DNA of 63,984 nucleotides, the filler included, from Ionaspis alba (lineage: Eukaryota): NCBI GenBank assembly GCA_964255285.1. It is 3 parts of 3 records of this genome, joined end to end, with 100 filler letters (N's around TTAATTAATTAA, not from the genome) between each part and the next. Parts side by side here need not be neighbours in the genome. Positions count along the whole stretch, not along the records: positions 44,947 to 63,984 come from CAXUUL010000275.1; 2 more parts are not named here. One strand, 5' to 3'. Of the stretch, positions 33,577 through 63,984 are shown piece by piece. Both the position numbers and the translations under genes were made by a program. How positions within the stretch are numbered: position 1 is the first letter of the stretch; each line of letters begins with the position of its first letter. The notes under the pieces were generated by a model. It was not told the origin of the DNA. It did not search any database and saw only the letters and a program-made list of their open reading frames with translations.

Positions 33577-34774
33577 ATTAGCGAGGACCCGGAGGCTAAG
33601 TAGGTACTAATGGTCTGCATTCAAATGAGGTCAGCTGGATTAGAGTGAGATCGTTGCGAAATAATATAGCTTACACATAGAAATGGCGAGAACCAAGGAG
33701 CGCAATTCGTACACTGTCTATCTCCTATATACAAGCATTTTGCTCGTGCAAGTCGTAGGTTCTTGCGCAAATTGATTCCCTGAGCTATTCGCTAGCTGCG
33801 AAATCGTAGGGTTCGAGCGCATTCAGTTATAGTTCCGACCACGAAATACTAGAATCTCGGCGATCAAAACGCACAAAGTAAATGGTAGACTTGATTTTCG
33901 AGAGATTTCTATCGTAAAGAGATCGTAGAAATTGTTTGGTTGATGAACAGATCAAGTTCTCGTGTGCTGCTTGCCTGGAAGAAGTTGCGGGCTGGGATGT
34001 TCTCTTAGCGCCACCACTAGCGCTATGCACACCCGCCATCAATTACGAGTAATCGACACAACAATCGTAGATTCAAGATGATCTCCAATAGCGCAAAATC
34101 ACAACTCTCGATGCCACAATAGCAACCACCATAGAGCGTGTTCTTGCAATGAACGGGTCTGTTCCGATTTAGAAGCCGAGATTTCGGTATCAATGAAGCA
34201 TTTCCAAAATCACTATGCTCCCACAAAAGCCTTCAAGTACTTCGACAATAACTACACCATCCCAGCTATCAACAGCAGGTACGCTACCGTGCTGCCGTCG
34301 GCGGCTCAAAAGCTTATCGTCGATAAGGTCGCCGCTGCCACATGGGTGGATGAGAGCCGCATCACGTGACTATGTTCGGCTGTGTATCTACTTGTAGCTT
34401 AGTCCGGCGATGCTCTGGGGATCGGAATGATGCCGGATGGATTGCTCCAAGATATGGACTCAATTTTATATCGGAGGGTTCTGCTGATGAGACATGATCA
34501 TTCATGGGTCAGGGCTGTTTCAAGACTACAACCTGCCCAACTTAGCTATCCATAGTAACTACAGAGCTACCAAAATTCGCTCTGCCAATCAGCTCCCCTT
34601 TGCCAATGACCCCATGAGCGCCTATGCTAGATTAGGTATATAACGCCAAGCAGAGATGAGGTGCTGCAGCATTGAGAAATCCACATTTTGGCAGGCAAAG
34701 CGACCAGATCGTCCTGACATCATGACCACTGTCATACCAATTTTACACGATATCCACCCAGACGCCGACCACAA

Positions 34775-44846: not shown

Positions 44847-44946
44847 NNNNNNNNNNNNNNNNNNNNNNNNNNNNNNNNNNNNNNNNNNNNTTAATTAATT
44901 AANNNNNNNNNNNNNNNNNNNNNNNNNNNNNNNNNNNNNNNNNNNN
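44847..44946. other. Artificial scaffold linker N44-TTAATTAATTAA-N44
   Basis: Same structure as 22397-22496. Oligo at 44891-44902. Confidence 0.95.
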
Positions 44947-46096
44947 CCCCCTATCATCCCTCCCACTCCTACTCTTCCCCCTCTCCACCCTCTTCTGATG
45001 CCTCTTGGCCTTCTCGGCCTTATACTCCTTGTACCCATGATGCGTCTGCTTCGTAGTCTGCCACTTGGAATACGCACCCTTGATACTCAAAGCCGCGACC
45101 CCAATAGCAGCCACATCCTGCAACCTCGCCTTATTCTTCTCCTTCCTCGCCTCCTGCTGCGTCAACTCGCCTTTGCGGACCTGCTCGTGCCGTTTATCGC
45201 TCGCCTCCATGGAAGCGTAGACACCCGATGCCGCATGGATGGTGGCCACGGCGGCAAGACCCGCGGTCAGAAGTTCGTTGCGGATGAGTTTTTTCTTCTG
45301 GCGCTCGTCTTCCGAGGAGGAGATCACGCTGTCGCTGTCGCTGGAGCTGCTGGAGGAGTCGGGTTTCTTTTTTGTGCTGACGGAGCCGGCGTTGCTGCGG
45401 GTGGCGACGGTTGATTGCGGGACGTAGCGCGAGGGGTCGTAGTCTCGCCTGCTGTTATTGTAGTCGCGACGGTCGTCGTATCCGCGCCGGTTGTCGTTGC
45501 GCCGGCCGAGCTCGGCGGTGTCGAAGGAGCTGCGGCGGTGGACCATGCCGGGGCGGCGCCGAGGTGGGACCGAGGATTCGGAGTCGGAGGCTGAGGAGTC
45601 GGAGCGGTAGGCGGCTAAAGGAGGTTTAGTTGGATTGATGGTTGGTGTGTTGGGCGGGAGTACTCACTGCGACGAGTGACCTTGCCGTCCGTTCTACCCC
45701 GTGTGTACGCATCCTCGCGATATCTCCCTTGATCGTCGTGGAATCTTTGCGCATACACCTGATCGTTCTGTGGGTAGTTTCTGATTTTGTTGTGAGTAAT
45801 GCTGGCACGATGAGAAAGTCGGGTGGGAACAAAACTCACGATTGATCGCGGGAATCTCCGTTGTCATCATCCTCATCGTAATAGCGCTTTGGTCGTTGAC
45901 GTTCTGTTTGACTTCTGCGTGGTGGACCGTAGTCATCCGTTACCTCTTCGTAGTATTCTTGTTCGCCTCTCTTGTTCTTGCGGCCGGGTATTGGGATCTT
46001 CTTGACGGTGCGCTTTGAACGTTCGTAGATCGTGTCGTAGTTGTTGAGTAAAGCCGGAACGCCATTGAGAGCGAGATTCGCGAACTGTTCAGCCAT
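44947..46096 (-). CDS. Low-complexity R/D/S-rich protein with DUF3824-like C-terminal domain, 3 exons, 3' end cut by the scaffold edge
   Basis: Spliced product MAEQFANLALNGVP..DQS/NYPQNDQ..VTRR/TAYRSDSS..ELLTAGLAAVATIHAASGVYASME..EARKEKNKARLQDVAAIGVAALSIKGAYSKW. The family name is from memory. Confidence 0.7.
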
Positions 46097-46941
46097 GGTG
46101 GGATAGAGAAAGGCTGAGCAGGAAGGTAAAAGATCAAGGGATAGAGGTTGTCAACGGATCGCAGCGAATGTGAGAGAACACCGAGGATGTTTCACGAAAA
46201 TTGATCGTAGATTACCATGAACGTCTCGAATAGGCAAAGAGTTGAATACTGCTCAGCAAGAGGGCCAGGCAATTGATGTCCGGGTGAGAACAGAAAGTGA
46301 AGGAGTCTTTGAGCGGAAGTAATGGAAAAGGGTTGTCGGGATGGAGGGGAATTGGAGCGCCAGACTCACGAGTGCTGTGTTGGATTTGTGGATGAATTGT
46401 GAAATATGCAGCATGACGCATGACGCAAAACGCGTGCATGCAGGCCCAGTCGAGACTGAGGGGTCGTCGCAAACGTGGCGGTGAAGGAGTCGAGTCCGGC
46501 CAGGCAATACTAACTACTTCAAGTCCAGCGCCATATTCTGTCGACACGGGAGGCGCATTAAGATCACGGTCATCTGATGGTTATCGTGATGTGGGCGCAC
46601 TGCTCGATCCAGCAACCACGTCAGGATTCCTTCGGACGTGGTTGCACAGCATAGAGCATTAGACATGAGGCAAAGTCAGGTACGGAAGGATGAATCGACC
46701 ACTGGCGCTTGTACCTGTGTACCTTACATCTTCGAGAACAAGCGATTGGCATGGCGTCTATTGATGCTGATATACACGTCCGCCTGACTATGTCACCAGG
46801 CGGCAAAGGCAACATCGGCAGTTCATTTGCATTGATGGAGAGAACTATCCGCAATTCCTCTCGACACATGAGCTAGGCTGAGCACCACTCGAGGGCCCGG
46901 ACACAAGACTTATACGGTTGGTTAATCATATTGTAGGAAGG

Positions 46942-48851
46942 CTAACAAGATTCCATGGCCGAAGGCCTACTCGTGTCGACCCAAACCTCCATAATCTGCT
47001 CTTTCCCATGCTCCACTCCTTCCAGAGTAGGCGCTGGATACTGACTAGTGAGCACAACTCGCAAGGATCTGAAAGTCATATTGAGCTTCAGCAGCGACTT
47101 CAGGAACCGAGATCGGCTCTGGGCTGTTTCATCCTCCAGGCACAGGTCGATACGATCGATAATGAGAAATATCTCTTGGTTCTCATGGCTTGGCTGCCGT
47201 TCGATCATTCCCAACAGATGTTTAAGCATCTCATACACTGTCTCCGTGCGGGTACCTGCATGTTGAAATGCTTGAACAGAAAGCAAATTGAGATTATTGG
47301 AAGCAAGAACGATTTCCGGATGTGCTTGAAGGAGTTGCACTAGGACCCTCTTGAAGATGGTTAATGGGGTGAGGCGCTCTTGATCTGAACCTCCATTGAA
47401 AATGATATATGCTAGGTCAATGTTCTTTTCGAGCTCGAGAGCTTCAATAACGTCCTTGGAAAATGATGATACCCACGATGCCCCTCTCCTGTTTTGCTTG
47501 CCGCCAATCCAGAGTATTGGTCGCGGCTCGCATTGGAGCCAACCAGGGAAGTGGATCTCGTCAAGATGATTGTCCCATTGCTCCTTTGGTGTCAGACCTC
47601 GCTGCTGCTCTTCCATGAACTCTTGTTCTGGCTCCGAGTCGTGAGGCTGTGGTAACAGAATGCTTGAAATTTGCTGAATATAAAGACTTGCTTGAAATCG
47701 TGTAGAGTCTATCCAGCACGTCAATGTCGTGGCCGATATTGGATTACCTCAATGCAACTTACCTTTGATTAATGCCCGGCATGATTCAAGATCGGTTTCC
47801 AGTGCAGCAATCTTGAAGTTGAGAACCGTGGCCTGAGTGGTTACTTTTATCTGAATCTCCTTGATTGCTATAGTAGGGCCGTCAGTGGTTTGTTGTAGCA
47901 AGGAGATGCGTTGATATTAATCAACCTTCTGCAGTCTTATCAAGCGTCGCCTTAGAGTCGAGCAGCACTGTAGTGTAGCCTCTCTGGGCCAGTGTCTCTA
48001 TTCTTGCTGCATGATCACGGATCGTGTCCACGAAGTGTTGAAATCTTTTAGAGAAATCATTGATCAGACCGTCCAGGATTTTCACTACAATTGCATAAGA
48101 CAAGTATAGGATCAGTGGGGCACTATATCGAGATTTCATTCCTAGAGAGACATCTCGTTGGCTTACCTATACTCCATTTCTTCTGATAATGAAGTGCGTG
48201 TACGAGAAAATCAATAATGGCTGCAGACAATCCCTGGACCTCGGTGTCTATCTCTACTGTTGGGATCGTGCTCTTGGAGAACTTCACCTGAGAGAGTATA
48301 TCCTTGAGCTGGTCGATCTCACTCTCGAGCTTCTCCTCTATTTCTAGTTTATTGCTGACTGGCTGATAGGAGTCAGGTGTGTTTGTGCCGAGTAGGGTGG
48401 AGCATTACGTACCTGGATCAACAACAGCCCTACTAGACCCAACGCAATAGAACACTCAGGGGAGATATTTGCTTGCTTGAAAATCTCCAGGACAGGAGCT
48501 GCAAATTGCGAGAACCTGTAGACTTTCTTCCAAATTTTGCTGTGCTGTTTCTTCTTGTCAATTTCTTGTAAGTACTGCGCTATAAAATCCTCCACGGCTT
48601 TCAAGTCCTTTACTTGATCAAGGACCTGTCTTTCATTGCGGTCAAGGGTAAGATGGCGTAGGTGATCCGATGCTCTTGAGCATGCTTTGAAGGTGTTTTC
48701 TGAAAGGCTGTTGACCGCTTCGTCAGCGGCAACATTGGTGCATACGTAGATCAGGAGTTTTCGAGACTGACAAGAAACGATCTTGTATAGAGCCTGGATG
48801 TCCGACTCTCTTGAGCACTTCTTTGGCGATAACGAAGGTCTCGTTCGTCAT
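46942..48851 (-). CDS. NLR-like protein: helical N-terminal domain plus degenerate NACHT/STAND NTPase fold, no C-terminal sensor repeats (6 exons, roughly 530 aa)
   Basis: GT-AG introns join MTNETFVIAK..QDRF / LSENTF..HSKIWKKVYRFSQFAAPVLEIFKQANISPECSIALGLVGLLLIQ / PVSNKLEIEEKL..AIIDFLVHALHYQKKWS / KILDGL..RFQHFVDTI / AIKEIQ..LIK / DSTRFQ..FPGWLQCEPRPILWIGGKQNRRGASWVSSF..LAYIIF..FKRVLVQLL..IFLIIDRID..LRVVLTSQ*. The last exon has the NACHT motif layout. Confidence 0.7.
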
Positions 48852-49198
48852 TCCTATTTCTTATACTAATACCGGCAGGATTACGATAATATCAGTAGAG
48901 CGAGCCACGATTCTAGCTTTAGTGCCGCCATAAACATTGTGAGGTCCCGAGATCAAAAAGTCGGAGCGGTACAGCCATGATGATATAGATGGCACTGCCC
49001 TGTCTTCGTTTGACCGTATGTAGCTGACGGCTGTGCCACCAATCGACAGGGCCACCAATAGCTGACCTGTCAGTCCAAGTGGCAATGCTCAGCCTCATCT
49101 TTGATAGGTTGAGTATCAATGTCTATGCGTATAAGTAAGCGAGGAAGTACAATCTTTTGTTTCATTTTGTTCTCCCGAAAGCTAGATACTACAACGAC

Positions 49199-51678
49199 AT
49201 GATGGAGAATGGGGATAGCTCTGTGAGTACCAACTAAAATGGACGAGTATTCCGGCCACACTAACAAGATTAGTGCGTCTTTGAGGACAAAATCGATCAG
49301 GCACCTTCGTCACTGGATCGACACTCAGAGAAGTCTGCTCTGGAGCAGGTTGTAAATGGCGATGAACAGCAGCCAAATGGTGTAGAGGACGTAAAGCAGT
49401 CCGAGGGTGTAGGCCCGCTTCCTAAATTGCTGATAGACAGTCTGCGGGAGCTCGCCAAAGTTGCAGGACAAGCAGCAAATCTCGGCGGCTCGTATGAGAA
49501 GGAAACCGAGAACACTTCTCCCAAAGATACGGAATCAGTCGATGGCGGACCTGCGGTCTGTACGGTCAGCAATTGGGAGTCGTTCCTTCCATTCAGGCGG
49601 TATTCGGCAAACGACCAATATGTCAAACTCTCCATCCCTGGCAAAGAGGATCGAAAGACCGGCCCTATCCTGCTCAGACCAACCGACGCTCAGGATGATT
49701 ATACCGACTCGTCTTTGTTCGACATCTACTCTAGAAGGGACGACCTACCTCAGCTCGAAATCTACTCTATGTACCTACAGAGAAAGTTCCGAGACATCAT
49801 CGAAATCCCGTTGTATTCTGCGATCGCGCTCTATGCTTCATGTCTTACCATCAGTCCTCCATACGTACCCTTATTTCATCATCTAGACGAGTTAAAAGAA
49901 AACATTTTCAACGACCCCAACCTCTCAAGCAAAGACCGCAATTCCTTTCAGGCCATATGCAATTTCTTTACCTTCGCCCGGCCGCAAAAGCTTTTTGAAG
50001 ATGTGCAGAACATTATCGAAGAGGGCTTCATCATCTACAGAGAAATGTGGGCTCTCTATCGGCCTGGTGATTACGTGGTATCACACAACCCTTTAGGCAG
50101 TCTCGAGATTTCGCAGGTTTCCTCGGTCAAGTATGAAAGAGATACTTCGAGTTACCCTTACCATTATTATTGGTACGTAACAACGAAACAACTGGCGTGG
50201 ACTCAGAAAGGGTATCAGCTCGCCTCCATGAGACACAGAATCGAAAGCTTTGAAGGAGCGAAGAGAATCGTTGAGCTTGAGTTCTGTCCCATCTCTCGTT
50301 ACCCGGAAAATGAGAAGGTGAAGGAAAGGGTTTGCCAGCGCGGTAGGAATTGGAAGCAGTATTGCGAAGGACGGCCGATGGTTATGACTTACAAAGGCCA
50401 AGCTTTGTCACTAATCAGGGACTCCCGCTTCCAATCACGGCGCGACGAAGTACCAGCGATCAATACTGTCCCGGTGAGTGAAACAATTCATAGTATTTCG
50501 AGCACTCTAATAACAACATTGCAGTTGTCTGCCACTGTTATAGTGGACTCGGATGCTCGAAGCAAACTCGTCAAGCAGGCAGATATAGATAATCGCGAGG
50601 TTCAAAGATACGCAGACTCTCTTTGGCTGTCAGACAGCACGTACAGAGAATTTCCGGCCAAAGAGTTCAATGAGGAAATATATATGATATGTCCAGCAAG
50701 TATCATCGTCTTTAGTCTGGAAGATCACGGCTGGTATAGTGTGGAGACACTCAAACTCGAACCAAAGTTATGGAGACCAGCTGCTTTTGATAGACTGGTC
50801 ATCGATCCAAACAAGAAAGACATCTTGCGGCGTCTGGCCAAGACTAACCTTCTTGTGGAAGGTGCATCGTCTAACGACGTGATTGATGGCAAGGGCAAGG
50901 GAATAGTGCTGCTGTTACATGGCCCACCTGGTGTGGGAAAGACACTTACCGCAGGTACATAGGGTTCCAAGCAATTCCTTTCTTCAGCGAGCTGACCCCC
51001 ACGAATTATAGAAGTGCTCTCAGAGCTCACACAAAAGCCATTGCTCAAGGTGAACCTGGGAAGAGTTGCCAGTCAAAGCAATTGGGAGCAAGCTCTAGAA
51101 CAGGTCTTTCACAATGCCGAGACTTGGAAAGCAATCTTATTGATCGATGAGGCCGAGATTGTCCTCGAGAAGAGGACTTTCGAGCGAATGACCCAGAATG
51201 CATGGATCTCAGGTTTGGATACCCGTTGACCCCACACTCTTTTCAGGCGACTAATCTGTATTTTACAGTCTTTCTCCGCAAGCTAGAGTACTACAAAGGC
51301 TTGATCATTCTCACCACCAACCTGATAGAATGTATCGATAGTGCCTTCGAGTCGCGCATCAGCTACCCTATCGAGTTTCGTGAACTTAATGCTACGGACC
51401 GCCACCAGATTTGGACCGACTTCATCAAGAACCTAAAGATGCCTCCACCAACCAAGCGTGCTCTGCTCGAGCACGTAGATGATTGGGCAGCAGAACAGAT
51501 CAACGGACGGCAGATCCGAAACATCATCTCCATGGCCGAGAATTTAGCGCTCAGCGATGAGCATCACCCTCGCATAACTCCTGACCATGTCGAGAAGATC
51601 TTGAATGTAGTGCTGGAATTTTCGGAGTTCAATCGGAAGAGCTCTTTGAAGAAGAAGAAGGATTATTTGGCATACTGA
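49199..51678 (+). CDS. Fungal AAA+ ATPase with long N-terminal domain (DUF7025-type family), 5 exons
   Basis: Exon 1 MMENGDSS is spliced (gtgagt..ctaac..tag) in frame to the 511-aa ORF. Motifs PYVPLFHH, MWALYRPG, IESFEGAKRIVELEFCP, DVIDGKGKGIVLLLHGPPGVGKTLTAE (Walker A), ILLIDEAE (Walker B), FLRKLEYYKGLIILTTN, DSAFESRI, INGRQIRN. Confidence 0.88.
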
Positions 51679-51928
51679 CCACGGCTGGCATGAAGCTCGA
51701 GCGTTGCATATGACGGATAGAGGAGCAAAGCATAGTAGACTATTTAGGTACTATACAGCGACTTGCTAGGTTTTGTATAGACGTCAAGGGAATTGGAGCT
51801 CCAGTCACCTGATAACTCACCTCTTAGCACTAGATATGGCCACGACTGATTGACTTAGATGTTCACAACTGCGCTAGCAAGAATGGTATCTGTGCATGCG
51901 TACAAATACAACCAATATGCGCAATCCT

Positions 51929-53851
51929 CTAAATTAATGCCTGCCCCTTGAACATACCCTCCCTGACCTCTCTGACCACATCCCTCCGATCTCCTTTCCC
52001 TACAAGCACAATACCCTTTCCCCTCCTGCCCATCCGTCCGGTCCTACCAAGACGGTGAATAAAGTCGATCGTCGAATGTGGAACGTCGTACAAGATGACG
52101 TGGCGCACGGCCAGCGTATCTATCCCACGCGAGCCGAGGTCCGTAGTGACGAGGACTTTCGTATTCGGGAGAGAACGCTTTGGAGCAGGTACGGTTGGCG
52201 CACGGTGTGCAGGAACATAATTCGATCCGGAGGATGAGGCCGGAGCTGGTGCAAGAGGGGTATTGGCGATGGTTTCGGGTGTACGAGAGGTGAACGATGC
52301 CAGCAACTCGGATTGTCTTTGCTCGGGAGTGTCTCTGCTTAGCGCTACTGCATCGATGCTTTTCGACTGCAGGTATTCGGACACTTCTTGCGCCTTTTCC
52401 CGCTCGTTCACGAATACGAGGATGCGTTTGATGTCCATGGTGTCAGGCTCCCGGGTGCCGGAATGAGTTACGGTATGTTCCGCTGCTGCTTTACCAATAG
52501 ACCAGACAGTTTCGGCACAGGCGAGGAGTTTGTTGCCACGATATGGGTCCCTTTCGACATCTACTACACCGAGCTGAACACGACGAGGGATGGCGTGAAG
52601 ATTGGGAGTTACTAGTCGGCGCATGTCAGGAAAGCGTTTCTGAAGATACGCATCCAACGAGCGCGGAATGGTAGCGGAACAGAGAATTAATTGCTTCAGT
52701 GATGGTGTTGCTCTGTCGATGATGGCTGACGTGGTGGGGACGAAGGAACGGTCGAGTAAGGAATCGGCCTCATCGATGACAAGATGAGTGACGCGGGAGA
52801 GAATGTTTGGGTCCGAGTCTGCTATGCTTGAGAGGAGATGCGGTGTCGAGATCAGGAGATCGATGCCAGAGGGACTGAAAAGGCGATTGCGAATGACGCG
52901 ACCTGTATAAGACGATGATATCTGAGAGGAACGAAATTTGACGGTGTGGGAAAGAGCTTTCGCAAGGGTCCCAACCTGCGTGACAAGCTCAGAAGTAGGG
53001 AGAAGGATGATGGCACGAGGACGACCGGTCGTCGGATGTGGTTGATTGGTGAGAGGCGGGGGCTCAACATAGTAGTTGTTATTCTTTCGTTTTTGTTCCT
53101 TCTCAGCTTGCTTGGCGGCTTCCAGCTCAGCATCAATGGCTTCGGCTCTTTTGATAGCATCGAGAATTGGTAGAAGATAGGCTAGGGTCTTGCCAGAACC
53201 GGTCTCCGCTGCAATCAGGAATTGCTCCATCTCTTCCTTCTTGGCCCCGGACGAGCGCCGTTTCTTCCCCATTCCTTGTCCCAGAAAACTTGGTATAGCT
53301 AGTCGTTGTATGGGCGTTGGAGTAATATTGTCCAGTCCCAGGAGTGCCTGCGTAGCGATCGAGTCTTTTATGAGTGGTAGAAGTGCGAACTGATCAAAAT
53401 TCTCGATTTCCGAGATTTTTTCCTTGGTAGAGGTTCGATGTTTATATGACACGGGACTGAGCGTCCTCTGCATCTTCAGCGCTTTGAAAGTATCATGACT
53501 ACCTCTGTCTTGTCTTTGGGGCCTCTCTCTCCCACCAGTAGATCTCTTGATTTCTGAAGGAGACCGCCGGTCGGGCTCGCGATTTATCTGAGCTGAGCGC
53601 ATATTCATGCCACCAAAAGGACTATTCCTGCTCTTTCTCGTCGGCTTCCCGCTTGGGCTTGTATACTCGATCGGTCTGGCGACTCTGGGCGAAAGTGCCA
53701 TCCTTGAGGGAGGACGGCGACGCTGCAGCTGCGTCATGGATCTTGATGGTTGCCATGACCGTAGATTGTTCCATGAACCGCTTCTTGCTAGGAGCCGATG
53801 TTGACATATCAAGCATAAAGCTGTGCCCGAGTGCGACATTGATATGTTCAA
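51929..53851 (-). CDS. MRH4: Mitochondrial DEAD-box RNA helicase Mrh4
   Basis: Q motif PTPIQ, AAETGSGKT, LPTSEL, STP, DEAD, SAT, SRGID, HRLGRTGRMG. Basic presequence. Start codon uncertain. Confidence 0.9.
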   Translation of the reverse strand: MNISMSHSGTALCLICQHRLLARSGSWNNLRSWQPSRSMTQLQRRRPPSRMALSPRVARPIEYTSPSGKPTRKSRNSPFGGMNMRSAQINREPDRRSPSEIKRSTGGRERPQRQDRGSHDTFKALKMQRTLSPVSYKHRTSTKEKISEIENFDQFALLPLIKDSIATQALLGLDNITPTPIQRLAIPSFLGQGMGKKRRSSGAKKEEMEQFLIAAETGSGKTLAYLLPILDAIKRAEAIDAELEAAKQAEKEQKRKNNNYYVEPPPLTNQPHPTTGRPRAIILLPTSELVTQVGTLAKALSHTVKFRSSQISSSYTGRVIRNRLFSPSGIDLLISTPHLLSSIADSDPNILSRVTHLVIDEADSLLDRSFVPTTSAIIDRATPSLKQLILCSATIPRSLDAYLQKRFPDMRRLVTPNLHAIPRRVQLGVVDVERDPYRGNKLLACAETVWSIGKAAAEHTVTHSGTREPDTMDIKRILVFVNEREKAQEVSEYLQSKSIDAVALSRDTPEQRQSELLASFTSRTPETIANTPLAPAPASSSGSNYVPAHRAPTVPAPKRSLPNTKVLVTTDLGSRGIDTLAVRHVILYDVPHSTIDFIHRLGRTGRMGRRGKGIVLVGKGDRRDVVREVREGMFKGQALI

Positions 53852-54306
53852 TCCGCTCCTTCATGCAGCTCGCACTCAACCTCATCACCGTAAAATTCAT
53901 TGCTTGGCACATCTTGAATCATTAGCGCCGGCTTCAGATTGTTGTTGCCCCCTCAACGTTAGTCTGAAAACTAGGCGAGACCTGTTATGGAGCTTTAAGC
54001 TTGCACTTTCCCCTCCCACACCACTTCGCTCCCAAACACGGTGAAGCTTTCCTTCTTCAATCGCGCCGCTCATGCGAACGTTTGTTAGATGCGATCGAAC
54101 ATCTGCTACAATTGTAATACGTGCACAACAATTTCTTTTCAGGTTGGGGTTTGATATCTCATCTGACCTATCGCGATCCTTTTGTTGTTGATCCATTCCC
54201 TCTTGCATTCCTCGTGCGCTGAGCTGAGAATAGCTCAAGTCTATCATCCAATCATCGAAGAGGTGAATCTGAAAGTATTCTAGACACTATTGGGAACATC
54301 CTCAAT

Positions 54307-57300
54307 ATGTCGCAACCTGTAAGGCGCACTCAGATAGTGGCATCGCAACTACAGCTACTGACGCCGTCCACTTTCACAGATCCAGCCTTTACGAATTCAG
54401 AAGAGCTCTGTTCCTTCGTCACCCACCAAGATGAATAGCTCATTTGTGTCACGTCCACTGGCTGAGCTCAGCCCAGTGGCACAGAGGAGAAACTCTCCAA
54501 GCTACAATCTGAACGCTAAGGTAATGTCCACCAGTGCTTTTATGATTGTGGATATTGCTCACACATTGCAGAAGGCCATGTTCAACGGGGACTCCTCGCC
54601 GTTCGACTCTTCGCCCTTTGGGTCGAATTCTCCGCGTTCCTACTGGCAGAGTCGCGACTCCATATCACCGCATCGCTTCAGCATGGAGAACCGCAACCCA
54701 ATGGATGGGAGAGATGGATCGCCTTCACCGTCCAAGCGATCATCAATTGAAAACCTAAAGCGCGCTTCGCGAGTGAAGAACAGCAATATGTTCGCACGTG
54801 AGCATAAGCAAGAATACGATCCTACTTCGACTCCTGTTATTGAGAGACCTCTTGCAAGCGGTAGGCCTTTAAGCGTGCAGAAGCAAGGAACTGCTACGAA
54901 TGCGAAGGGACACGAGGGTGTGTTCAAGGATCATGACAGGGAGACTACCAAGGTTCTTGTCTACAGCCCACAAAAGTCTCCGACCAAATACGATGCTATT
55001 CCGGAACCGCAAAAGTCGCCCAATCGAGGCCAGACCTCGCCCAGCAAATCATCGCTATCCAAGAACAGCCGTTATGCGCAAGCTTTCGATCCCGAGAACG
55101 GTATGTGGTCCGAGGAGGACGAATCATTCATGGATCGTCAGCTACCCGCCGGCAAATCCCTTCATCGTCATGCCAAAAGTGTCACTTTTGATGCGGCTCC
55201 CCCGCAGATCAACGAATATGAAATGACTACTCCTGACCCCTCCTCTGTAGCATCAGGATCGCGCGAGGGAAGCTACGAATCTGGAGATGGAGACGAAGAC
55301 GAGAGCTTCGACCGTGGTTCCTCCATCGATCGCGAAGACAGTTTCGATGCTTCACTCGAGGATACCGATAAGACTCCCGTTGTTCTACCCGAAGACTGGC
55401 GCTTTATGAGTCCAGCTATTGCTAACGATGAGCTTGCTGCAACCATGGAGGATCCTTTTGATGGCGAGAAGAGTAGCCCAGCTCCAACAGCAAAGCCTAT
55501 ACCGTCCGAGCTTCGTTTGTCACCTACACGAACTGACTCGGTCAACTCTAATGGAGAGCGCCGTCCTTTACCTCCATTACCTGCTCTGGGTGTGCCTGTT
55601 TTCCCTAGAGCACGTTCGGATTCCAACAGTAGCCTAATGGCTACCGCCGAGCGCATCAATAGTTCTCCACGTAATCTACCATCTCTTCCTCGACCAGCCT
55701 CAATCTCAAAAGCAGAGCTTCAGGGAATGGGTGGATCGGCAATGTCACTTGAAGATCGACTGCATTTAATGATGATACAAGAAGCCGAGAAGCCAAAGAC
55801 ACCGGCAGAAGAGCAGCGAGAGAGACGCCTCAGACGGGCTGGCACTCGTGAAAAGTCCCCAGAGCACTGGGACGCTAAAGATAATAGAGTTGTGGTACAT
55901 GAAGATGAATTTGAGAAGGACGATGTTGCCGACCTCGGAGAGTACCAGCTACCGCCTAGGATCTCCAGGGAGTCTATTCTACGCAAGGTTAAGAGCCAGC
56001 ATTTTATACAAGACCAACTCGACTATTCTTCACCTGTGCCAAGTTCGAGCCCTGATCGTCCCATCATTGACAATCTGGATCCAGATGTGCCCCTACCTTC
56101 TCTTGAGGATCAGTCCATCATGATGGAAGCTGAGGAGCAGGTCATAATAAAGCAAGAAGAAGATCTGGAGAGCGAGATCGATGTATACTCCATTCCTGAA
56201 ATGTACCAGCACAACCCCCCGCAATCGGGTCCTACTGTGAGCGAGTTTACCAGCTATACTGCCATCACTCTCAAGTCTGGACAATCGGCTCCTCAAAAGG
56301 ATGACGACGATCAAAGCCACTATTCAACGGATTCCAACGGTGAACCTCACCTTGGTCAAGCACAAAAGTCAAATAGCGTCACTGAAGATGAAGGACCACC
56401 AACTCCTCGTGCGCAAAGCCCGGCTCGACCTAATCAGGAACAGGAGAACAAAAAGAACCATCGCATGTCGTTACCTCAATTTGCATCTATGCTTGGGGAA
56501 GACGACTTTGGTCTGAGTTTCCAGTCATACATTACTCCAAGCCCACCCGTGACCGAAGAGCCTACCAAGACTGTTGCGCAGTCCATTCGGCTGCCTGTCA
56601 CTCCTCAGGAAGAGCTTGATCCTCTTCGATTTTCAGGTCATGGATCGCCGGATCAAGAAGAACCTAAGACTCCTGAGTCAGTCATTCGTCACTCCATCGC
56701 AAGTCCCCAGCCTCCAGATTCGCCTAGTGTCCCAGAGCCGGACGCAACCATTAAAGCTTCCGGAGGAAAACTAAAGACACGTCCTTCGATCACTCGAGCC
56801 GATGTTCGTGCTATGGCTGAGACACGGAAACGAGTTAGCGATCAACACCAGGATGTCCTACTCAGTCCGAACGCCAGTGATGGCGCGGAAAGAGAGGACA
56901 TTGACAAATCTCCCACGGATGGTTCTCAGGAGGGCATCGACCAGGTCAAGCAAGTGAAGAGGAAAAGCAGCCTGATCCAGCTAGACATCCCGGTCGAAGA
57001 GCTGGATGAGGGTCTTTCGATTGGGTTGGACAAAGAATTTGATCGTGTCATAGAAGCCCAAAAGGTGGCGTTCAACTTTTCATTACAATCTTTCCAAACA
57101 TCAGGAAGATCTATTGTAGACGAACGAAATATAATGTCCTTTTCAAGGAAGTATGCTAACATTTCTACCCGAAACCAGAAAGGCTATCTGATGAGACACA
57201 ACACCAAGATGGTTGTTGCGAGCAGTGCTTCACACGAGTCTGCCACGGAAACTTCCGCTGAGGCTGCTGCTCCAGAACTGCCGCATGCTCGCGGAACTAG

Positions 57301-59123
57301 ATCAGCTGGTAACTCTCCGAGGAAAACCAGTGCCACTCAAACTTGGACAACAGAGCCGTGGAACGGGAAGATCCGGCGCAAGAGTGTCCGACAATCGTTT
57401 GGCAGCCCCCAAAAGCAGACTACGACTGGGCCCGCTCCACCACTTCCGGGGCAGGCAAGCAATGTTCAGAGTGGTCTGGACAGTGTTGCCGAAAATGAAA
57501 TCGCGCAGACTGCTGAGGATTTCGAAGAGGGGGTGGAAAGAGGTCGGTTATTCGTGAAGGTGGTTGGTGTCAAGGCTCTAGAGCTCCCATTGCCAAAGAG
57601 TGGGTATCCTGTGAGAATGTGTGGTAAGAACTTACTAACGACGATTTAGGTGAACGGTCGTATTTTGCATTGACTCTGGACAACGGACTTCATTGTGTTA
57701 CGACAGCATGGCTCGAACTTGGGAAATACGCTCCAATCAACCAGGAGTTTGAACTTGTAGTCCTCAACGACCTAGAGTTTCAGCTCACGTTGCAGACAAA
57801 GCTTGAGGAACCAAAGACAGCTCCGAAGAAGATCATCGAGTCTCCCACGAAGAGTGTGAAGACCCCCAAAGCCTCAACCTTCAGCCGAGTTTTCCAGTCA
57901 CCGAAGAAACGCAAAGAGCTTGAGATGAAGCAACAAGAAGAAGCACAGCGAGCCGCGAAGCAGAAACAGCTCGATGCACAAGCTAACAAACGCTCTGCCG
58001 AGCCCACTGCATGGGATCTTCTTCACAACCTGGTTGCGAAGGACGGTAGCTTTGCACGCTCTTACGTATGCCTCAAGGATCACGAGTCCCAGGCTTATGG
58101 TCGACCTTACACCGCTGACATGCCATGTTTCAACGAATGGGCGATGGAAGAGGTCGGAACTATGGGAAGCGCGAAGAGTCGTCGTACCCAAAACGTCAAT
58201 ACTACACAGCGGAAAGCGCCGTACCAGATCGGCAAGCTTGAGCTCCAACTTCTCTTTGTTCCAAAGCCGAAGGACGCGAAGGACGACGATATGCCCAAGA
58301 GCATGAATGCTGCCATTCGCGAACTGCAAGAAGCTGAGGCGAGGACTGATAAGTCATGGGAGGGACACTTGAGTCAGCAGGGTGGGGACTGTCCGGTATG
58401 TTCTTAGCAAATGTCCTACGTGTCTTCAGTTTGCTTATGTTACCTTAGTACTGGCGTCGTCGATTCTTCCGTCTCGAAGGATCTAAGCTGACAGCCTACC
58501 ATGAGGCTACTCGTCAACCCCGTGCTACCATCAATCTTGCTAAGGCTAGCAAGCTGATTGACGACAAATCTTCTTTGACCAAGAAAGAAGTTACTGGCAA
58601 GGGCGGCGCCAGACGCAGATCTGCCTTCGCCTCCGAGGAGGAAGGTTACATGTTTGTCGAGGAAGGCTTCCGTGTTCGCTTCGCCAATGGAGAAACCATT
58701 GACTTTTATGCCGATAGCGCCGAAGAGAAGGAAGGCTGGATGAACGTTCTAGTCGATGTCGTCGGCAAAGACGCCAAGCAAGCCAATAGCTGGACAAGCA
58801 TGGTTTTAGCAAAGCATCGCGCCAATGCCCAACGTATTGCAAGGGCCGAACAAGGACAAATGAGGCAGCCCTCCTCGGGTATGAGGTCTGCACCGCCGAC
58901 ACCAGGACCACGGCAAAGCTCGCAGCAATCATCGCAGCCGCAGCAGCACAGACCCTCCTCCAGACAGCAGCCGAGACCAAGTTCTCAGCAACAGCAGAGG
59001 TACGCTCCGCATGCAGAGACAAGGCCAAGCAGTGGAGGCAACGCACCTATGCCGGTTCAGAAGGACCCAAGACACATGACAGCGGAAGCGAGGAGGGCGA
59101 AGTCGAGGTCCATGATATTCTAG
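54307..59123 (+). CDS. BUD4: Anillin-related bud-site selection/septation protein Bud4 (anillin-homology and PH domains)
   Basis: Exon 1 MSQP, then IQPLRIQK. KSVTFDAAPPQINEYEMTTPD, GRLFVKVVGVK, TLDNGLHCVTTAW, EFELVV, GSFARSY, PH domain EGHLSQQGGDCP/YWRRRFFRL..EEGFRVRFANGETIDFYAD. Confidence 0.92.
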
Positions 59124-59664
59124 ATGTGAATTTTTCGACTGATTGATTGATACTGTATATGGAATGCGTGCAATGCTCATGAATGGAGGGAGTGCAGGAA
59201 AGGGTTCGGACTGACTTGTTCAATTGATACCTTTACTTCAATTCCTTCAAAAGCAGTACGCTAAGATGGACTTGCTTTGGTTTGGTGAGACGTGTACTTA
59301 TGGGAGCTTGTACAGAGAAATCGGTGGTCGTTTCACTTCATGTTTATAACAGCTGGAATATGCACTGATCGCTGGACTTAATTCAATATCCGTTGTTCTC
59401 ATCCTCTCCAACAACGTGACGCTCTTCTTGAACAGCTTTTGTCAAACCTAAAAGGCTCCTTCCCCGGAAACGACCTCCTCACACACACAAAAGAGCAGGT
59501 GCAGTCGAGAGCGAGACAACATCATCGTAAGCATGTTCCTCTCTTTCTCCTGGTCAGGTCTCTCTGTACAACACGCCAGTTTCGATCACACTCGTTTAGA
59601 TTCTATTCACACAATTATTTGCTATTATATCAGCCAGTATCATTCAGACACTCGTTTATTTAGA

Positions 59665-60627
59665 ATGGATGACATCGCAGACACCGGACCCGATGCTGAA
59701 GACAAACTCTATTCCCAGTACCAGACCTGTGATCATATATGGGCATGGAGGGACGAAGTCAACCGCAACCATCCTGTGTCGTGTATTCGGAACTGGCTGT
59801 CCGATGAAAACGGTATCTGGTGCCTACCAGAGAGTCGCATGACTCCTGCGCTGTTCCAGGCGCCGTACCAGGTTTCATTTCCAGAACTTTCGCCGCCTCT
59901 AACACCACATCAAATTCGAGTCTCGGCTGCTTCATCTCCTGTTATTCCGGAAGATCTAACCCCACAATACAAGTTCGTCTGGCCAAGACCCCGAAGAGAA
60001 TTGAACCACAGCTCATGGGACTTTGTCCTCCCTGAAACCATCCACACCGCTAAGGAGTTCAATAATGTATATGACGTTCTGAGTGAGCTCACCGAGAGCT
60101 TTGCAAAATATATTGGTGATTCACAGATTGAGTTGACCGCGGCTCGAATGCCTCCCTGGGAACAATACTGTGAGGAACCAGGACATAGGGAACTGTGGAA
60201 TCATTGGGAAGGAAGGACACGCCGTTATGTTGAAAGCCTCCTGGGCTTGGTCTCTCGTGCCCGTGAACTATTGATGAAACTAGCCGTGCTTGTGGTCGAG
60301 GAGATCGCAAAGGACCAGGACCAAGTTACAGGTGCGTTAAGAGCGCAGCTTAGTTCTGAGGCTAGGCTGGGATTGACCTATGTGTTCGGGATAATGCGTC
60401 GGTGGAATATGGCCTTGGATGAGACGGAAAGGGACCTTGAAGAACAGTTGGTTATTTGGCGCGGTCTTGAGGAGAAGATCCGACTTCCAGACGGCTGTCT
60501 GCAGAAGTGGAAACAAAAGAAGCTAGATCATCTCGGGTTTGGATCCAGAAAAAGCTTGCATGAGGCTTTTGGACAGGAACTGCTCAGGGTTTTTGGAAAG
60601 GATTTATTGGGGATGAGGCTACAGTAG
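59665..60627 (+). CDS. Hypothetical intronless protein (320 aa from this ATG; alternative ATG at 59533)
   Basis: Long uninterrupted ORF with a helical-looking, Trp-rich C-terminal half. No motif recognised. Confidence 0.6.
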   Translation: MDDIADTGPDAEDKLYSQYQTCDHIWAWRDEVNRNHPVSCIRNWLSDENGIWCLPESRMTPALFQAPYQVSFPELSPPLTPHQIRVSAASSPVIPEDLTPQYKFVWPRPRRELNHSSWDFVLPETIHTAKEFNNVYDVLSELTESFAKYIGDSQIELTAARMPPWEQYCEEPGHRELWNHWEGRTRRYVESLLGLVSRARELLMKLAVLVVEEIAKDQDQVTGALRAQLSSEARLGLTYVFGIMRRWNMALDETERDLEEQLVIWRGLEEKIRLPDGCLQKWKQKKLDHLGFGSRKSLHEAFGQELLRVFGKDLLGMRLQ

Positions 60628-60922
60628 GCCTGAAGGAGACAGACACAGAACGATAATGACTGTAGATCTCCTAGGCTCTGTGTACATTAGAGATATTTTC
60701 TTTTCATCCCCATAGCAGATAAGATATCTTGGATGGTCTGGACCCATGGCAGCCGAGACTGCTTGATAGTCGCACAAGGCTGAATTAGGGCAACCCACTT
60801 TTAGGGGAGCTTAACACTATGCATCATCCAGGACCTGAAATATGCCCACTCCCATTGTCAACAAACCTTGACATCATAGCGAAAACCCTTCGATAGGCCC
60901 GAGCTCCTACCATTCCACAACC

Positions 60923-63030
60923 ATGGCTGCAGGCAGCCAAGCACTAAGTTCTCTACTCAAAAAAGCCACAATCGAGGACCACGAAGAAGTGCTGAAAGCC
61001 TGCAATGCAACCCTCAAGCAGTCGAAAGGAGACTTGAACGCCCACCATGTTAAGGTCGTTGCGCTTCTGAAGCTCGACCGCTTTGATGATGTTATCCGTG
61101 TGCTGGAAGAGGGAGGCGACAAGCTCAAACAAAAGGCGCAATTGGAACACGCCTATGCACTCTACAAACTGGGAGAGCTGGAAGAAGCTCGAAGTTTGGC
61201 GAACGGCGTGAGCGATGATCGAGGTGCTAGGCATGTGGAAGCTCAGGCAGTACGTTTGCGGATTTTGCTCTCGGATGTGAAGCGCTGATCAAGTGTTCTT
61301 AGTCGTACAGATCGGAGAACTTCGCTCAGGCTGCGACCTTATATAAAACCCTCTCTGATAGCCGACAAGCAGCCATTGAGAACGAGGAGAATGACTTAAG
61401 GATCAATGCGGGTGCTACTGACGCGCAGTTGGAATGGAGAAGGCAGGGCCATCTTGTGCACAAGAAGCGAGCTGGGAGGGAGGACCTGGAGGCGTTCGAG
61501 ACAGCCTACAATGCAGCCTGTGGATGCATAGCCAGAGGGGAACTTAACCAAGGCGAGATCCTTCTCAAACGTGCCAAAGGTGAGTAAATTTAGTACAGTG
61601 CTGGAGGGTAGGCTCTGACAACGAATCTTAGATTTGTGTACGTCCTCAGAGGACCTGAATGACCAGGAGAAGATTGCGGAGCTTCTTCCAATCTCTGTAC
61701 AGCAGCTATATGTGCTAAGCGCGTTGGGCAAGATTGAGCAAGCTGAACAGCTAGCCCCGGAAATCACTCTCAACGAGTACGAGCCCCAACTGCGTGAGGT
61801 TCTGCTTGACTGACAGAACGCAGCATACCCGACCTGTCGACTCGCCACATAGCACAGATCAATCGGCTATCTACTACTCTAGAGCCCGCGAATCCTTACC
61901 TTGCCCATCGGGTACTTCACTCTAATGCTCCTTTGCCTAAGACGGACACGCTATTCCAATTCCAGGAGACCTTGCAGAAACAGAACAAGCTAACGCTTGA
62001 CCTTTTGTCGTCCAAATTTACAGGCGTGGCTGATTCCACAGCAAAGCATATATCACAGAATACTTCTCCTTCCACGTCTGCCAGCCTGAATTGTGTCTCT
62101 GTTGCAAATGCTGCGGCACACGCACAGAACCAATTGGGGAAGCTCGGACTCAAGTCCATTCTTCCTTTGTTAGAGAAACGACCGGCGGATGTTGGATTGA
62201 TAGTGACAGTTGTGCAACTCTACGTATTGACGAATAACCACGGTTCAGCAATCACGGTTTTGGAATCGTTCTTGAAACGCCTTAATGAGTCTACATCGGA
62301 AAACGATCTAGATGTCCGGTTCGCCCCTGGTCTCATTGCCATTCTTCTTTCACTTTACTCGATACAACGTCGCAAGTCTTACATCAGGACAGAGCTTGCG
62401 AAAGCAGCGTCATACTGGAGACACAAATCGAAAGCTCCAGCTAATTTGCTGCGTGCTGCCGGGTTGTCCCTCTTAGAATCTTCCAGTGAGGAAGACTTGA
62501 GCCTCGCAGGAGAGATTTTTGGCAATCTTCTCGAGCAAGACTCCAGAGACAAATTTGCCTCAGCCGGCTATGTTGCAGCGTATGCAACGACTAAACCATC
62601 GAAAGTTGAAAGTCTCGCAGGTCAACTAACTCCGGTCAATCGACTGACTTTTGGTGTCGACGTGGCGTCATTAGAGCATACGGGAATACCGCAGCTTGCA
62701 GCAGATGCCGCTACCTTACCGAGCAAGAAGCGTGCAGCCACTGAAAGCTCGAAGCCAGCAAAGAAAAGGGTCCGCGAGTCAAGAATACCAAAGGACTATG
62801 ATTCTAGCAAAGCTCCTGATCCGGAGAGGTGGCTCCCTCTCAGGGACAGGTCTTCTTATCGTCCCAAAGGGAAGAAGGGCAAGCAGAAGGCAGCAGCCTT
62901 GACACAAGGAGGCATAAACGAAAAGGGATCTGAGAACCTCAACATCTCTGCTAGTGACAGTGCGGTGAAGCCATCCAATAATGTCATTACTGGGACTTCG
63001 AAGCAGAAAAAGAAGAAGCCCAAAAAATAG
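60923..63030 (+). CDS. SRP72: Signal recognition particle subunit SRP72, 4 exons
   Basis: TPR N-terminus [41 protein letters not shown]-binding motif [34 protein letters not shown], Lys-rich tail. Confidence 0.95.
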
Positions 63031-63132
63031 AGCCAGTTTTGGCCAGTCACTCATCGTTTCGATTGCCATCCGTGCGATATGTGATTCCGTTGTCGCGGAG
63101 AGTATCGTGTACCAGCGCAAGTATTACCATGA

Positions 63133-63829
63133 CTAAGTCGCGAAAAGGGTATCCTCCTAAATCCCAATTAGCAAATCGCCAAACTCCATTACAGGTAGTC
63201 CATACCTCTCTGAGATACTCTCCTATATCCGCCTGCCTAAAAGTCGTTATCCCCGTCGGCTCCAATCTTCTAGCCTCAGCCGTGGACCTCGCCGTGACTC
63301 CGAATCCCTGTATCCAGTCAGTGTGCGGTACAATTGCCCCATATCAGCCCGGTGGACCACGCTATAGCGCTCCACATACCAAAGGCGTATCATCCATCCC
63401 CAAAACCACAACCCCCTGATGCTCCGGACAATCCTCACTCCACCTCCCCACATGAGCCTTGACCACATTGCCCCCGTAGAGAAAAGGCATCTCCCCATTC
63501 GGCTTCACCCACACCTTGTATCGCGCATGCGGCGCAATGATATCCAGCGCCGTGATGTGCATTCTGAACTTTCCCGTCTTGGTAAATTTTCCAAGGCATG
63601 TGCCAAGAGAGAGAAGATTGGGGCGAGCGATAGAAGTGGCGAGGTTGGCGAGAGAAAGCCGTACGTAGTAGACTCGGGAAGCGTGCAAGCGGAAGACATG
63701 GCGGTCTGGGGGGTGGCTGTCTGAAGAGGTAGAAGCCGGGGGTTCGATGAGATGATTCAGGGAGCGCCCGGTATAGTTTGCGAGTTTGGAGAAGAGGGCT
63801 TGAGTCTCACTTTCCGTGAGTGAGCGCAT
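63133..63829 (-). CDS. NIP7: 60S ribosome biogenesis protein Nip7 (PUA domain), 3 exons
   Basis: MRSLTESET..KLANYTG, LGTCLGKFTKTGKFRMHITALD, KVWVKPNGEMPFLYG, PL/GFGVTARST..FRQADIGEYLRE/EDTLFAT*. Confidence 0.96.
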
Positions 63830-63984
63830 GGTGGCAGCTGCAGCACTGGAATTGTAATAGCGGAGGCTTAGGGGTAGAAGTATTTACTGTATGGTTCGAC
63901 GGAAAGATATCGGATATCTTCGCTACGCTATTAGCGTTTTCACAAACCGTGCATTTTCTTGGCGCTCAACTTTGCTCTTTGCCC

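Follow-up and report, generated by a model that had tools for sequence, protein, structure and literature searches.

Fungal NOD-like receptors (NLRs) that join a Goodbye-like or DUF7708 N-terminal domain to a NACHT core were reportedly described by Dyrka and colleagues in 2014. Goodbye-like domains are described as four-helix bundles related to MLKL and HeLo; no other class is as frequent among the N-terminal effectors of fungal NLRs (Wojciechowski et al. 2022, PMC9815663). A Sordariales survey (PMC12258605) requires an NLR to combine a nucleotide-binding domain with a canonical C-terminal one and counts 13 head-to-head pairs among 225 two-NLR clusters, all of them pairing one NLR with another. 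Among bacteria, Kaur et al. 2020 (PMC7159879) describe ternary systems of MoxR and von Willebrand factor A (vWA) proteins, one class of which contains an inactive STAND (signal transduction ATPase with numerous domains; iSTAND) protein as third component, as the initial annotation of the present locus had correctly stated. Here, we describe a pair of divergent genes in a 63,984-nucleotide stretch of DNA from Ionaspis alba (assembly GCA_964255285.1), henceforth the window, which joins three parts of three records with 100 filler letters between them and takes its positions 44,947 to 63,984 from CAXUUL010000275.1. One gene encodes an NLR-like protein that has lost its P-loop and sensor, below called the pseudo-NLR, and the other an AAA+ ATPase. 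The solid result of the analysis is a conserved, NLR-derived family without P-loop and sensor, one member of which adjoins an AAA+ ATPase gene in two lichen-type fungi. As for the pair itself, the reading we prefer, albeit with only even confidence, is that of two real and intact genes that are restricted to certain lineages, belong to two Pezizomycotina families already catalogued, are inherited neighbours and most likely serve separate functions.

The two genes diverge from ATG 48851 (minus strand) and ATG 49199 (plus strand), both with intact frames, and the coordinates and spacing initially annotated for this head-to-head arrangement hold.

46942-48851, minus strand: pseudo-NLR gene with six exons encoding 533 amino acids, stop codon at 46944-46942; based on the gene model, the alignment with the Xylographa bjoerkii protein P0003 and Pfam
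48852-49198, between the two strands' start codons: spacer of 347 bp, a possible shared promoter region
49199-51678, plus strand: AAA+ ATPase gene with five exons encoding 754 amino acids; based on the gene model, the alignment with the X. bjoerkii protein P0002 and Pfam

The minus-strand gene is assembled from exons 48851-48772, 48707-48413, 48362-48167, 48084-47926, 47867-47763 and 47708-46942, separated by five introns of 50-82 nt, and its coding sequence of 1602 nt yields the 533 residues. The plus-strand gene comprises exons 49199-49222, 49274-50473, 50525-50954, 51012-51212 and 51269-51678, with four introns of 51-57 nt and a coding sequence of 2265 nt. All nine introns are of the GT..AG type and both models match annotated X. 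bjoerkii proteins, in line with the clean splicing and lack of frameshifts noted at the outset. Over 533/533 residues, the minus-strand protein aligns without a gap to P0003 (533 amino acids, MMC18_002500), with 59.5% identity overall, 65.7% in the N-terminal half and 52.6% in the core; this gapless alignment indicates, at the level of sequence, that the gene is intact and constrained. The plus-strand protein and P0002 (722 amino acids, MMC18_002499) are 52.2% identical overall. Their identity is lowest at the N-terminus (23.5%, residues 1-100), intermediate over residues 101-520 (45.5%) and highest in the AAA part (73.5%, residues 521-754), which marks this gene, too, as intact and constrained. 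P0002 runs uninterrupted over every splice junction of the model.

The minus-strand protein begins with a helical DUF7708 N-domain, continues with a long helix and ends in a NACHT-type core devoid of a P-loop.

47981-48511, minus strand: DUF7708 region (Goodbye-like helical N-domain), exons 2-4, interrupted by introns
47044-47565, minus strand: NPHP3_N (NACHT-type nucleotide-binding core), wholly in the last exon
47467-47514, minus strand: degenerate Walker A place, reading LWIGGKQNRRGASWVS, without GK[ST]
47140-47169, minus strand: Walker-B-like strand FLIIDRIDLC, whose D and R are invariant in an alignment of relatives (A1)

The DUF7708 coordinates were obtained by transferring P0003 residues manually to the window's exons. 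Exon 3 alone matches DUF7708 (PF24809) with 34.3 bits (cut-off 25), while residues 93-225 of the orthologue reach 58.3 bits; NPHP3_N (PF24883) scores 45.5 bits (cut-off 24.8, E 1.2e-11) over residues 48-221 of the translated stretch 46945-47706 (minus strand). The structure predicted for the last exon (pLDDT, predicted local distance difference test, 85.8; pTM, predicted template modelling score, 0.86) has a five-stranded core; past the Walker-B-like motif, the modelled chain has only two further strands and short helices. Its best fold match is Avs3 (Z 12.4, root-mean-square deviation 4.6, 214 residues aligned), with further matches to BrxC (Z 11.9), Cdc6/ORC (~11), MalT (9.6), NRC2 (8.9) and Apaf-1 (8.0). 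The modelled core is hence predicted to have the fold of a STAND/ORC-Cdc6-type nucleotide-binding core, and the STAND fold initially proposed for this protein is thereby recovered. A full-length model of P0003 (pLDDT 84.2, pTM 0.56) shows an all-helical N-terminal half and a helix of ~100 residues (197-296) that leads into the core. For the fold of the N-domain, a Foldseek search with this full-length model returned matches to nucleotide-binding cores only, at E values of at least 1.5e-3.

What sets this protein apart is what it lacks. The canonical P-loop G-x4-GK[ST] is absent; the Walker A place reads WIGGKQNRRGASWVS, with GGKQNRRGAS as the local stretch. Absent as well is the winged-helix (HETHS) arm, the protein ending ~66 residues past the Walker-B-like motif, and Pfam detected no ANK, WD40 or TPR repeats at E <= 0.1, for which no sequence room is left. 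With the P-loop Lys-Ser/Thr, the winged-helix arm and the repeats missing, the protein is predicted to be unable to cycle nucleotide in the canonical manner or to sense a ligand through repeats. The initial annotation had called it inactive and sensor-less, which agrees with the missing G-x4-GK[ST] and repeats. It had also credited the protein with keeping the NACHT layout, and this is correct for the NPHP3_N nucleotide-binding core but overstated beyond it, where the arm is gone and the chain soon ends.

These losses are shared by a family. When 1.84 billion representative proteins were searched exhaustively at E <= 1e-3, 104 relatives of the minus-strand protein emerged; 53 of them reach E <= 1e-10, and 14 reach E <= 1e-30. 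The canonical G-x4-GK[ST] is missing in 102/104, a count that includes many exon-sized fragments not spanning the places of the motifs; the two relatives that possess it are long ankyrin-repeat NLRs from the weak end of the list (E ~1e-5). A replacement pattern, W-h-x-G-x(5-9)-W-[VLM]-[ST], occupies the Walker A place in 55 of the 104 relatives and a hhhhDR[ILV][DE] motif is found in 75, fragments being included in both counts. Sixteen relatives measure at least 420 amino acids; 14 of these fall between 424 and 618 amino acids, and nine of the 14 stop 57-82 residues past the DR motif, where the window protein stops after ~66. Across 15 diverse members (alignment A1), W44, W56, W66, G69, W78, D85, L126, D184, R185 and T220 are invariant. 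Members come from the Sordariomycetes (Annulohypoxylon, Immersiella, Podospora, Apiospora, Seiridium), Leotiomycetes (Phialocephala, Claussenomyces), Dothideomycetes (Viridothelium, Trypethelium) and Lecanoromycetes (Xylographa), and UniRef names some of them "Goodbye" or "NWD NACHT-NTPase N-terminal". In the Atlas, DUF7708 together with NPHP3_N occurs in 13 of the 30 nearest clusters, all from Ascomycota and with representatives of 522-597 amino acids. Judged from these sequences, the loss of P-loop and sensor is a trait of a small Pezizomycotina family and not decay. Besides, the degenerate loop comes in two sub-types (alignments A1 and A4), Q-N-[RKN]-[RF]-G-x-S-W-V-S in the clade of the window protein and S-G-N-Q-D-[ST]-W-V-T in a clade rich in Sordariomycetes. 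Both sub-types are well conserved, which suggests that the former nucleotide site has adopted a new function.

The plus-strand protein is made up of a poorly conserved N-terminus, a DUF7025-bearing N-region, an AAA domain and AAA_lid_13.

50009-50299, plus strand: DUF7025 domain (PF22942), exon 2, residues 246-342; 53.9 bits, cut-off 27, E 2.2e-14
50909-51357, plus strand: AAA core (PF00004), exons 3-5
50921-50944, plus strand: Walker A, GPPGVGKT, read in the protein
51137-51157, plus strand: Walker B, LLIDEAE, read in the protein
51310-51321, plus strand: sensor-1, TTN within LTTN, read in the protein
51340-51357, plus strand: arginine in SAFESR, read in the protein
51385-51639, plus strand: AAA_lid_13 (PF23232, a fungal AAA+ lid); 35 bits, cut-off 27, E 2e-08
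51502-51522, plus strand: sensor-2-like NGRQIRN, inside AAA_lid_13

In the window, introns break up the PF00004 match and leave 16.5 and 19.5 bits on separate exons; the unsplit orthologue P0002 scores 59.5 bits. GPPGVGKT, LLIDEAE, TTN, SAFESR and NGRQIRN stand in the expected order, their labels having been assigned against what we take to be the AAA consensus, and the AAA+ motif set listed in the initial annotation (Walker A, Walker B, sensor-1 and arginine) is present throughout. The nearest sequences in the PDB are VAT and Afg2 (~1e-9). AAA_5 remains below its cut-off on P0002 (21.2 vs 22 bits) and no MoxR-type family is among the matches; nor did NACHT or NB-ARC match the plus-strand protein over the Pfam cut-off. 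With VAT and Afg2 as its nearest solved relatives, the protein is assigned on sequence grounds to the classical AAA clade (PF00004), not to MoxR.

The set of AAA, DUF7025 and AAA_lid_13 recurs in 24 of the 30 best Atlas hits, in a DUF7025-AAA family that is large and has many clusters without a stated partner. Within defence libraries, the AAA domain best matches IetA (PADLOC, E 4e-11) and TRIP13 (E 5e-10), yet the NCBIfam model IteA_antiphage reaches just 31.3 bits against a cut-off of 510, and these resemblances look like generic AAA similarity. The phage family phrog_29662 ("ATP-dependent protease") outscores the defence libraries, with E values of 2.5e-31 to 2.1e-39. One Atlas cluster of 143 members, 60% of them viral (Uroviricota), carries AAA in 100% and DUF7025 in 57%. 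The DUF7025-AAA architecture extends beyond fungi. Scans for similar loci returned none in viral contigs (alignment A5) and one generic AAA match in genome contigs (query P0110), in a metagenome-assembled genome of Chlorobiota (L003); PF22942 matched neither that genome nor any of 14 control genomes.

How do these two genes compare with the systems introduced above? In N-domain class (PF24809) and core type (PF24883), the minus-strand protein resembles the fungal Goodbye-like/DUF7708-NACHT NLRs. Unlike them, it lacks the G-x4-GK[ST] loop as well as the winged-helix/HETHS arm, carries none of the ankyrin, WD40 or TPR repeats and measures only ~530 amino acids. Since the Sordariales survey requires a C-terminal domain, the pseudo-NLR family would go uncounted there. 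The plus-strand gene fits the fungal DUF7025-AAA ATPases, with PF22942, PF00004 and PF23232 all over their cut-offs, directly or via the orthologue, and its neighbour is the sole feature that distinguishes it from them.

The likeness to the MoxR-vWA-iSTAND systems is one of design only, in that an active AAA+ protein is encoded next to a STAND-type NTPase that is inactive and carries an effector or adaptor domain at its N-terminus. Those systems are bacterial and have three components around a MoxR-clade AAA+ protein and a vWA protein, whereas the ATPase here belongs to the classical clade and the host is a eukaryote. No vWA family matched at E <= 0.001 among 17 large open reading frames (ORFs) between 25.7 and 63 kb, a scan that did not include small exons. 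Two of three defining features, the MoxR-clade ATPase and the vWA gene, thus fail, and the analogy drawn initially does not extend to membership. The same applies to the comparison with paired NLRs. Divergent orientation, a short spacer and an NLR-type gene are common to the plant head-to-head pairs and the locus described here, but only one partner is NLR-like, and without sensor and switch at that; a plant-type NLR pair was rejected because the other partner is a DUF7025-AAA ATPase. With the anti-phage system IetAS, the locus shares an AAA+ ATPase, IetA being the top PADLOC match of the AAA domain; unlike IetAS, it has no protease partner, and the similarity is generic to AAA domains. Full-text searches for DUF7025, DUF7708, PF22942, PF23232, PF24809 or AAA_lid_13 returned no publication, and "AAA ATPase" goes unmentioned in seven papers on fungal NLRs and Goodbye domains, leaving aside supplementary tables, which could hold neighbourhood data.

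The best named relative of each of the two genes lies in X. bjoerkii, where MMC18_002499 (ATPase) and MMC18_002500 (pseudo-NLR) bear consecutive locus tags on one contig of 211,636 bp; adjacency in this fungus is read from the tags and the contig. A word-indexed protein search with the ATPase, at a threshold of E <= 1e-20, found three proteins: that of the window itself, its orthologue in Xylographa and a third at 27% identity. A metagenome scan with a seven-sequence alignment of the pseudo-NLR (A2) gave two loci from 61 pattern matches, one of which (L001) is short of flanks. The other (L002) shows no ATPase match better than chance (E <= 10) within 1,262 bp upstream and 1,554 bp downstream, in a copy that is decayed and makes a poor test. 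That copy (1263-2998) is broken by two in-frame stops (1986-1988 and 2711-2713), both at positions occupied by Gln in its relatives, has lost an otherwise invariant Trp (RENSEN vs RERWEN in relatives) and is intronless across exons 2-4. It looks like a decayed copy and was possibly retro-copied or C-to-T mutated. Scans with A2 found no pseudo-NLR relative in viral contigs and none in genome contigs. When residues 85-480 of the Xylographa ATPase were modelled together with the entire pseudo-NLR, without controls or custom alignments, the prediction returned a score of 0.00 and a mark of 0.34, which speak neither for nor against contact.

Three DNA sequencing runs, all from one study, touch on the pair. 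One is identical to the window, of which it is probably the source, and another has identical pieces at low depth. In the third (X3, compared over 44947-56000), low-depth pieces 95-99% alike lie inside both genes and the spacer, and a more distant fungus, ~80-85% alike, covers the flanking helicase and anillin-like genes. The X3 pieces suggest a close relative that also carries the pair.

The surroundings are those of a housekeeping region. Gene order in the window runs from CDC20 through an M18 aminopeptidase, a HAD hydrolase, LETM1 and adenylate kinase to the pair, and onwards to a DEAD-box helicase, an anillin/PH protein and SRP72. This setting agrees with an old syntenic block. A horizontally acquired island was considered and rejected, as the GC content of the pair is merely 0.02-0.06 under that of the flanks. 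The gene directly downstream is a helicase with DEAD and Helicase_C domains in Pfam. Upstream, a "DUF3824-like" neighbour had been proposed, for which we found no support: the minus-strand ORFs at 44947-45663, 45839-46150 and 46215-46580 have no Pfam match at E <= 0.1. The upstream gene is interrupted by two N gaps of 44 bases each (44847-44890 and 44903-44946). Further downstream, an open frame of 1095 amino acids without a Pfam match (54362-57646, plus strand) precedes exons that encode anillin-homology and PH domains (57628-59123, plus strand); together, 54362-59123 is probably one long anillin/Bud4-like gene. A second AAA gene lies at 30611-33606 (minus strand), with an N-region of ~675 amino acids lacking a Pfam match and an intron-split AAA plus AAA_lid_3. 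Given its AAA_lid_3 and the lack of DUF7025, it was rejected as a paralogue of the plus-strand gene and is probably a different, housekeeping type of AAA protein.

If the two genes are inherited neighbours with separate functions, as we are evenly inclined to believe, the minus-strand product would be an NLR-derived pseudo-NTPase that acts as a nucleotide-independent scaffold or adaptor. By means of its core and long helix, it might oligomerise or dock on canonical DUF7708/Goodbye-NACHT receptors, and would thereby present or withhold its MLKL-related N-domain. The plus-strand product, predicted to be catalytically competent, would form a ring and remodel proteins other than the pseudo-NLR, with the adjacency reflecting inherited synteny and at most shared transcription control. 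In favour of this account are the intact and constrained state of both genes, the family-wide loss of P-loop and sensor, the STAND/ORC-Cdc6-type fold of the core, the size of the DUF7025-AAA family with its many partnerless clusters and the housekeeping surroundings. Adjacency in a single related fungus may be plain synteny. Several observations pull away from this account. The adjacency has outlasted divergence to 52-60% protein identity, and the sole strong named relative of both genes being in X. bjoerkii hints at a shared, patchy distribution. The pair is a non-housekeeping set in a housekeeping neighbourhood and slightly AT-richer than it (GC 0.45-0.48 vs 0.50-0.54 in the flanks). Besides, a pseudo-NTPase without a motor of its own that adjoins an active motor is suggestive of a complement. 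The functional module initially proposed for the two genes we consider possible but doubtful. In such a module, both genes would be transcribed together from the spacer between them, and the AAA+ ring would bind the pseudo-NLR via its DUF7025 N-region and assemble, disassemble or restrain its oligomers, with the Goodbye-like N-domain as the output; the ATPase would make up from outside for the nucleotide-driven switch now missing from the P-loop-less core. The head-to-head layout with its 347-bp spacer, the consecutive X. bjoerkii tags on a single contig, the best named relatives of both genes in the same genome and the conservation, as opposed to decay, of the pseudo-NTPase partner all speak for such a module, as do the bacterial precedents in which an inactive STAND protein is coupled to an AAA+ chaperone (PMC7159879) and the IetA and TRIP13 matches at the top of the defence libraries. 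Against it, the adjacency is backed by one other genome, the pseudo-NLR family is spread over four Pezizomycotina classes while the ATPase search at E <= 1e-20 found three proteins, the IetA similarity is generic (31.3 bits vs 510), and the L002 contig lacks a nearby ATPase, although a copy with two in-frame stops is a weak witness. Taking the module one step further, by analogy, to a conserved eukaryotic unit of motor plus inactive STAND protein, in which a classical AAA+ remodeller would switch a pseudo-NTPase bearing an MLKL-related domain in trans, is somewhat more speculative still.

The short divergent spacer and the conserved adjacency could also be explained by co-regulation without interaction, the spacer switching on both genes in a single response to stress or non-self, in which each protein has its own targets. 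Both families are of a kind tied to conflict or stress functions, which would suit this option, but overall we deem it unlikely. Finally, the minus-strand gene might be what is left of a full-length NLR, in decay and without a function. It does lack the P-loop, winged-helix arm and repeats, and the related L002 copy has in-frame stops. However, the 533-residue frame is intact with five clean introns, the Xylographa orthologue aligns at the same length without a gap, the Trp, Asp-Arg and Thr positions are invariant over 15 diverse relatives, and nine of the 14 short relatives of at least 420 amino acids end as the window protein does, so that a remnant seems highly improbable.

The pseudo-NLR family provides a clean case of an immune-type switch that has become a pseudo-enzyme, with an invariant Trp and an Asp-Arg at the former nucleotide site; its length of ~530 amino acids, its spread over four classes and these invariant residues are what make the case a clean one. 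As a conserved family without P-loop and sensor, it falls outside fungal NLR surveys, which demand a nucleotide-binding domain plus repeats, and its members could serve canonical receptors as adaptor, decoy or brake. Should the ATPase not be a partner, the locus would hold two ordinary lineage-specific genes within a syntenic block. If it is, this would be the first eukaryotic parallel of the bacterial AAA+/inactive-STAND systems, and a unit of motor and inactive STAND protein would represent a fungal counterpart of bacterial conflict systems and a new way to control an NLR-type executor.

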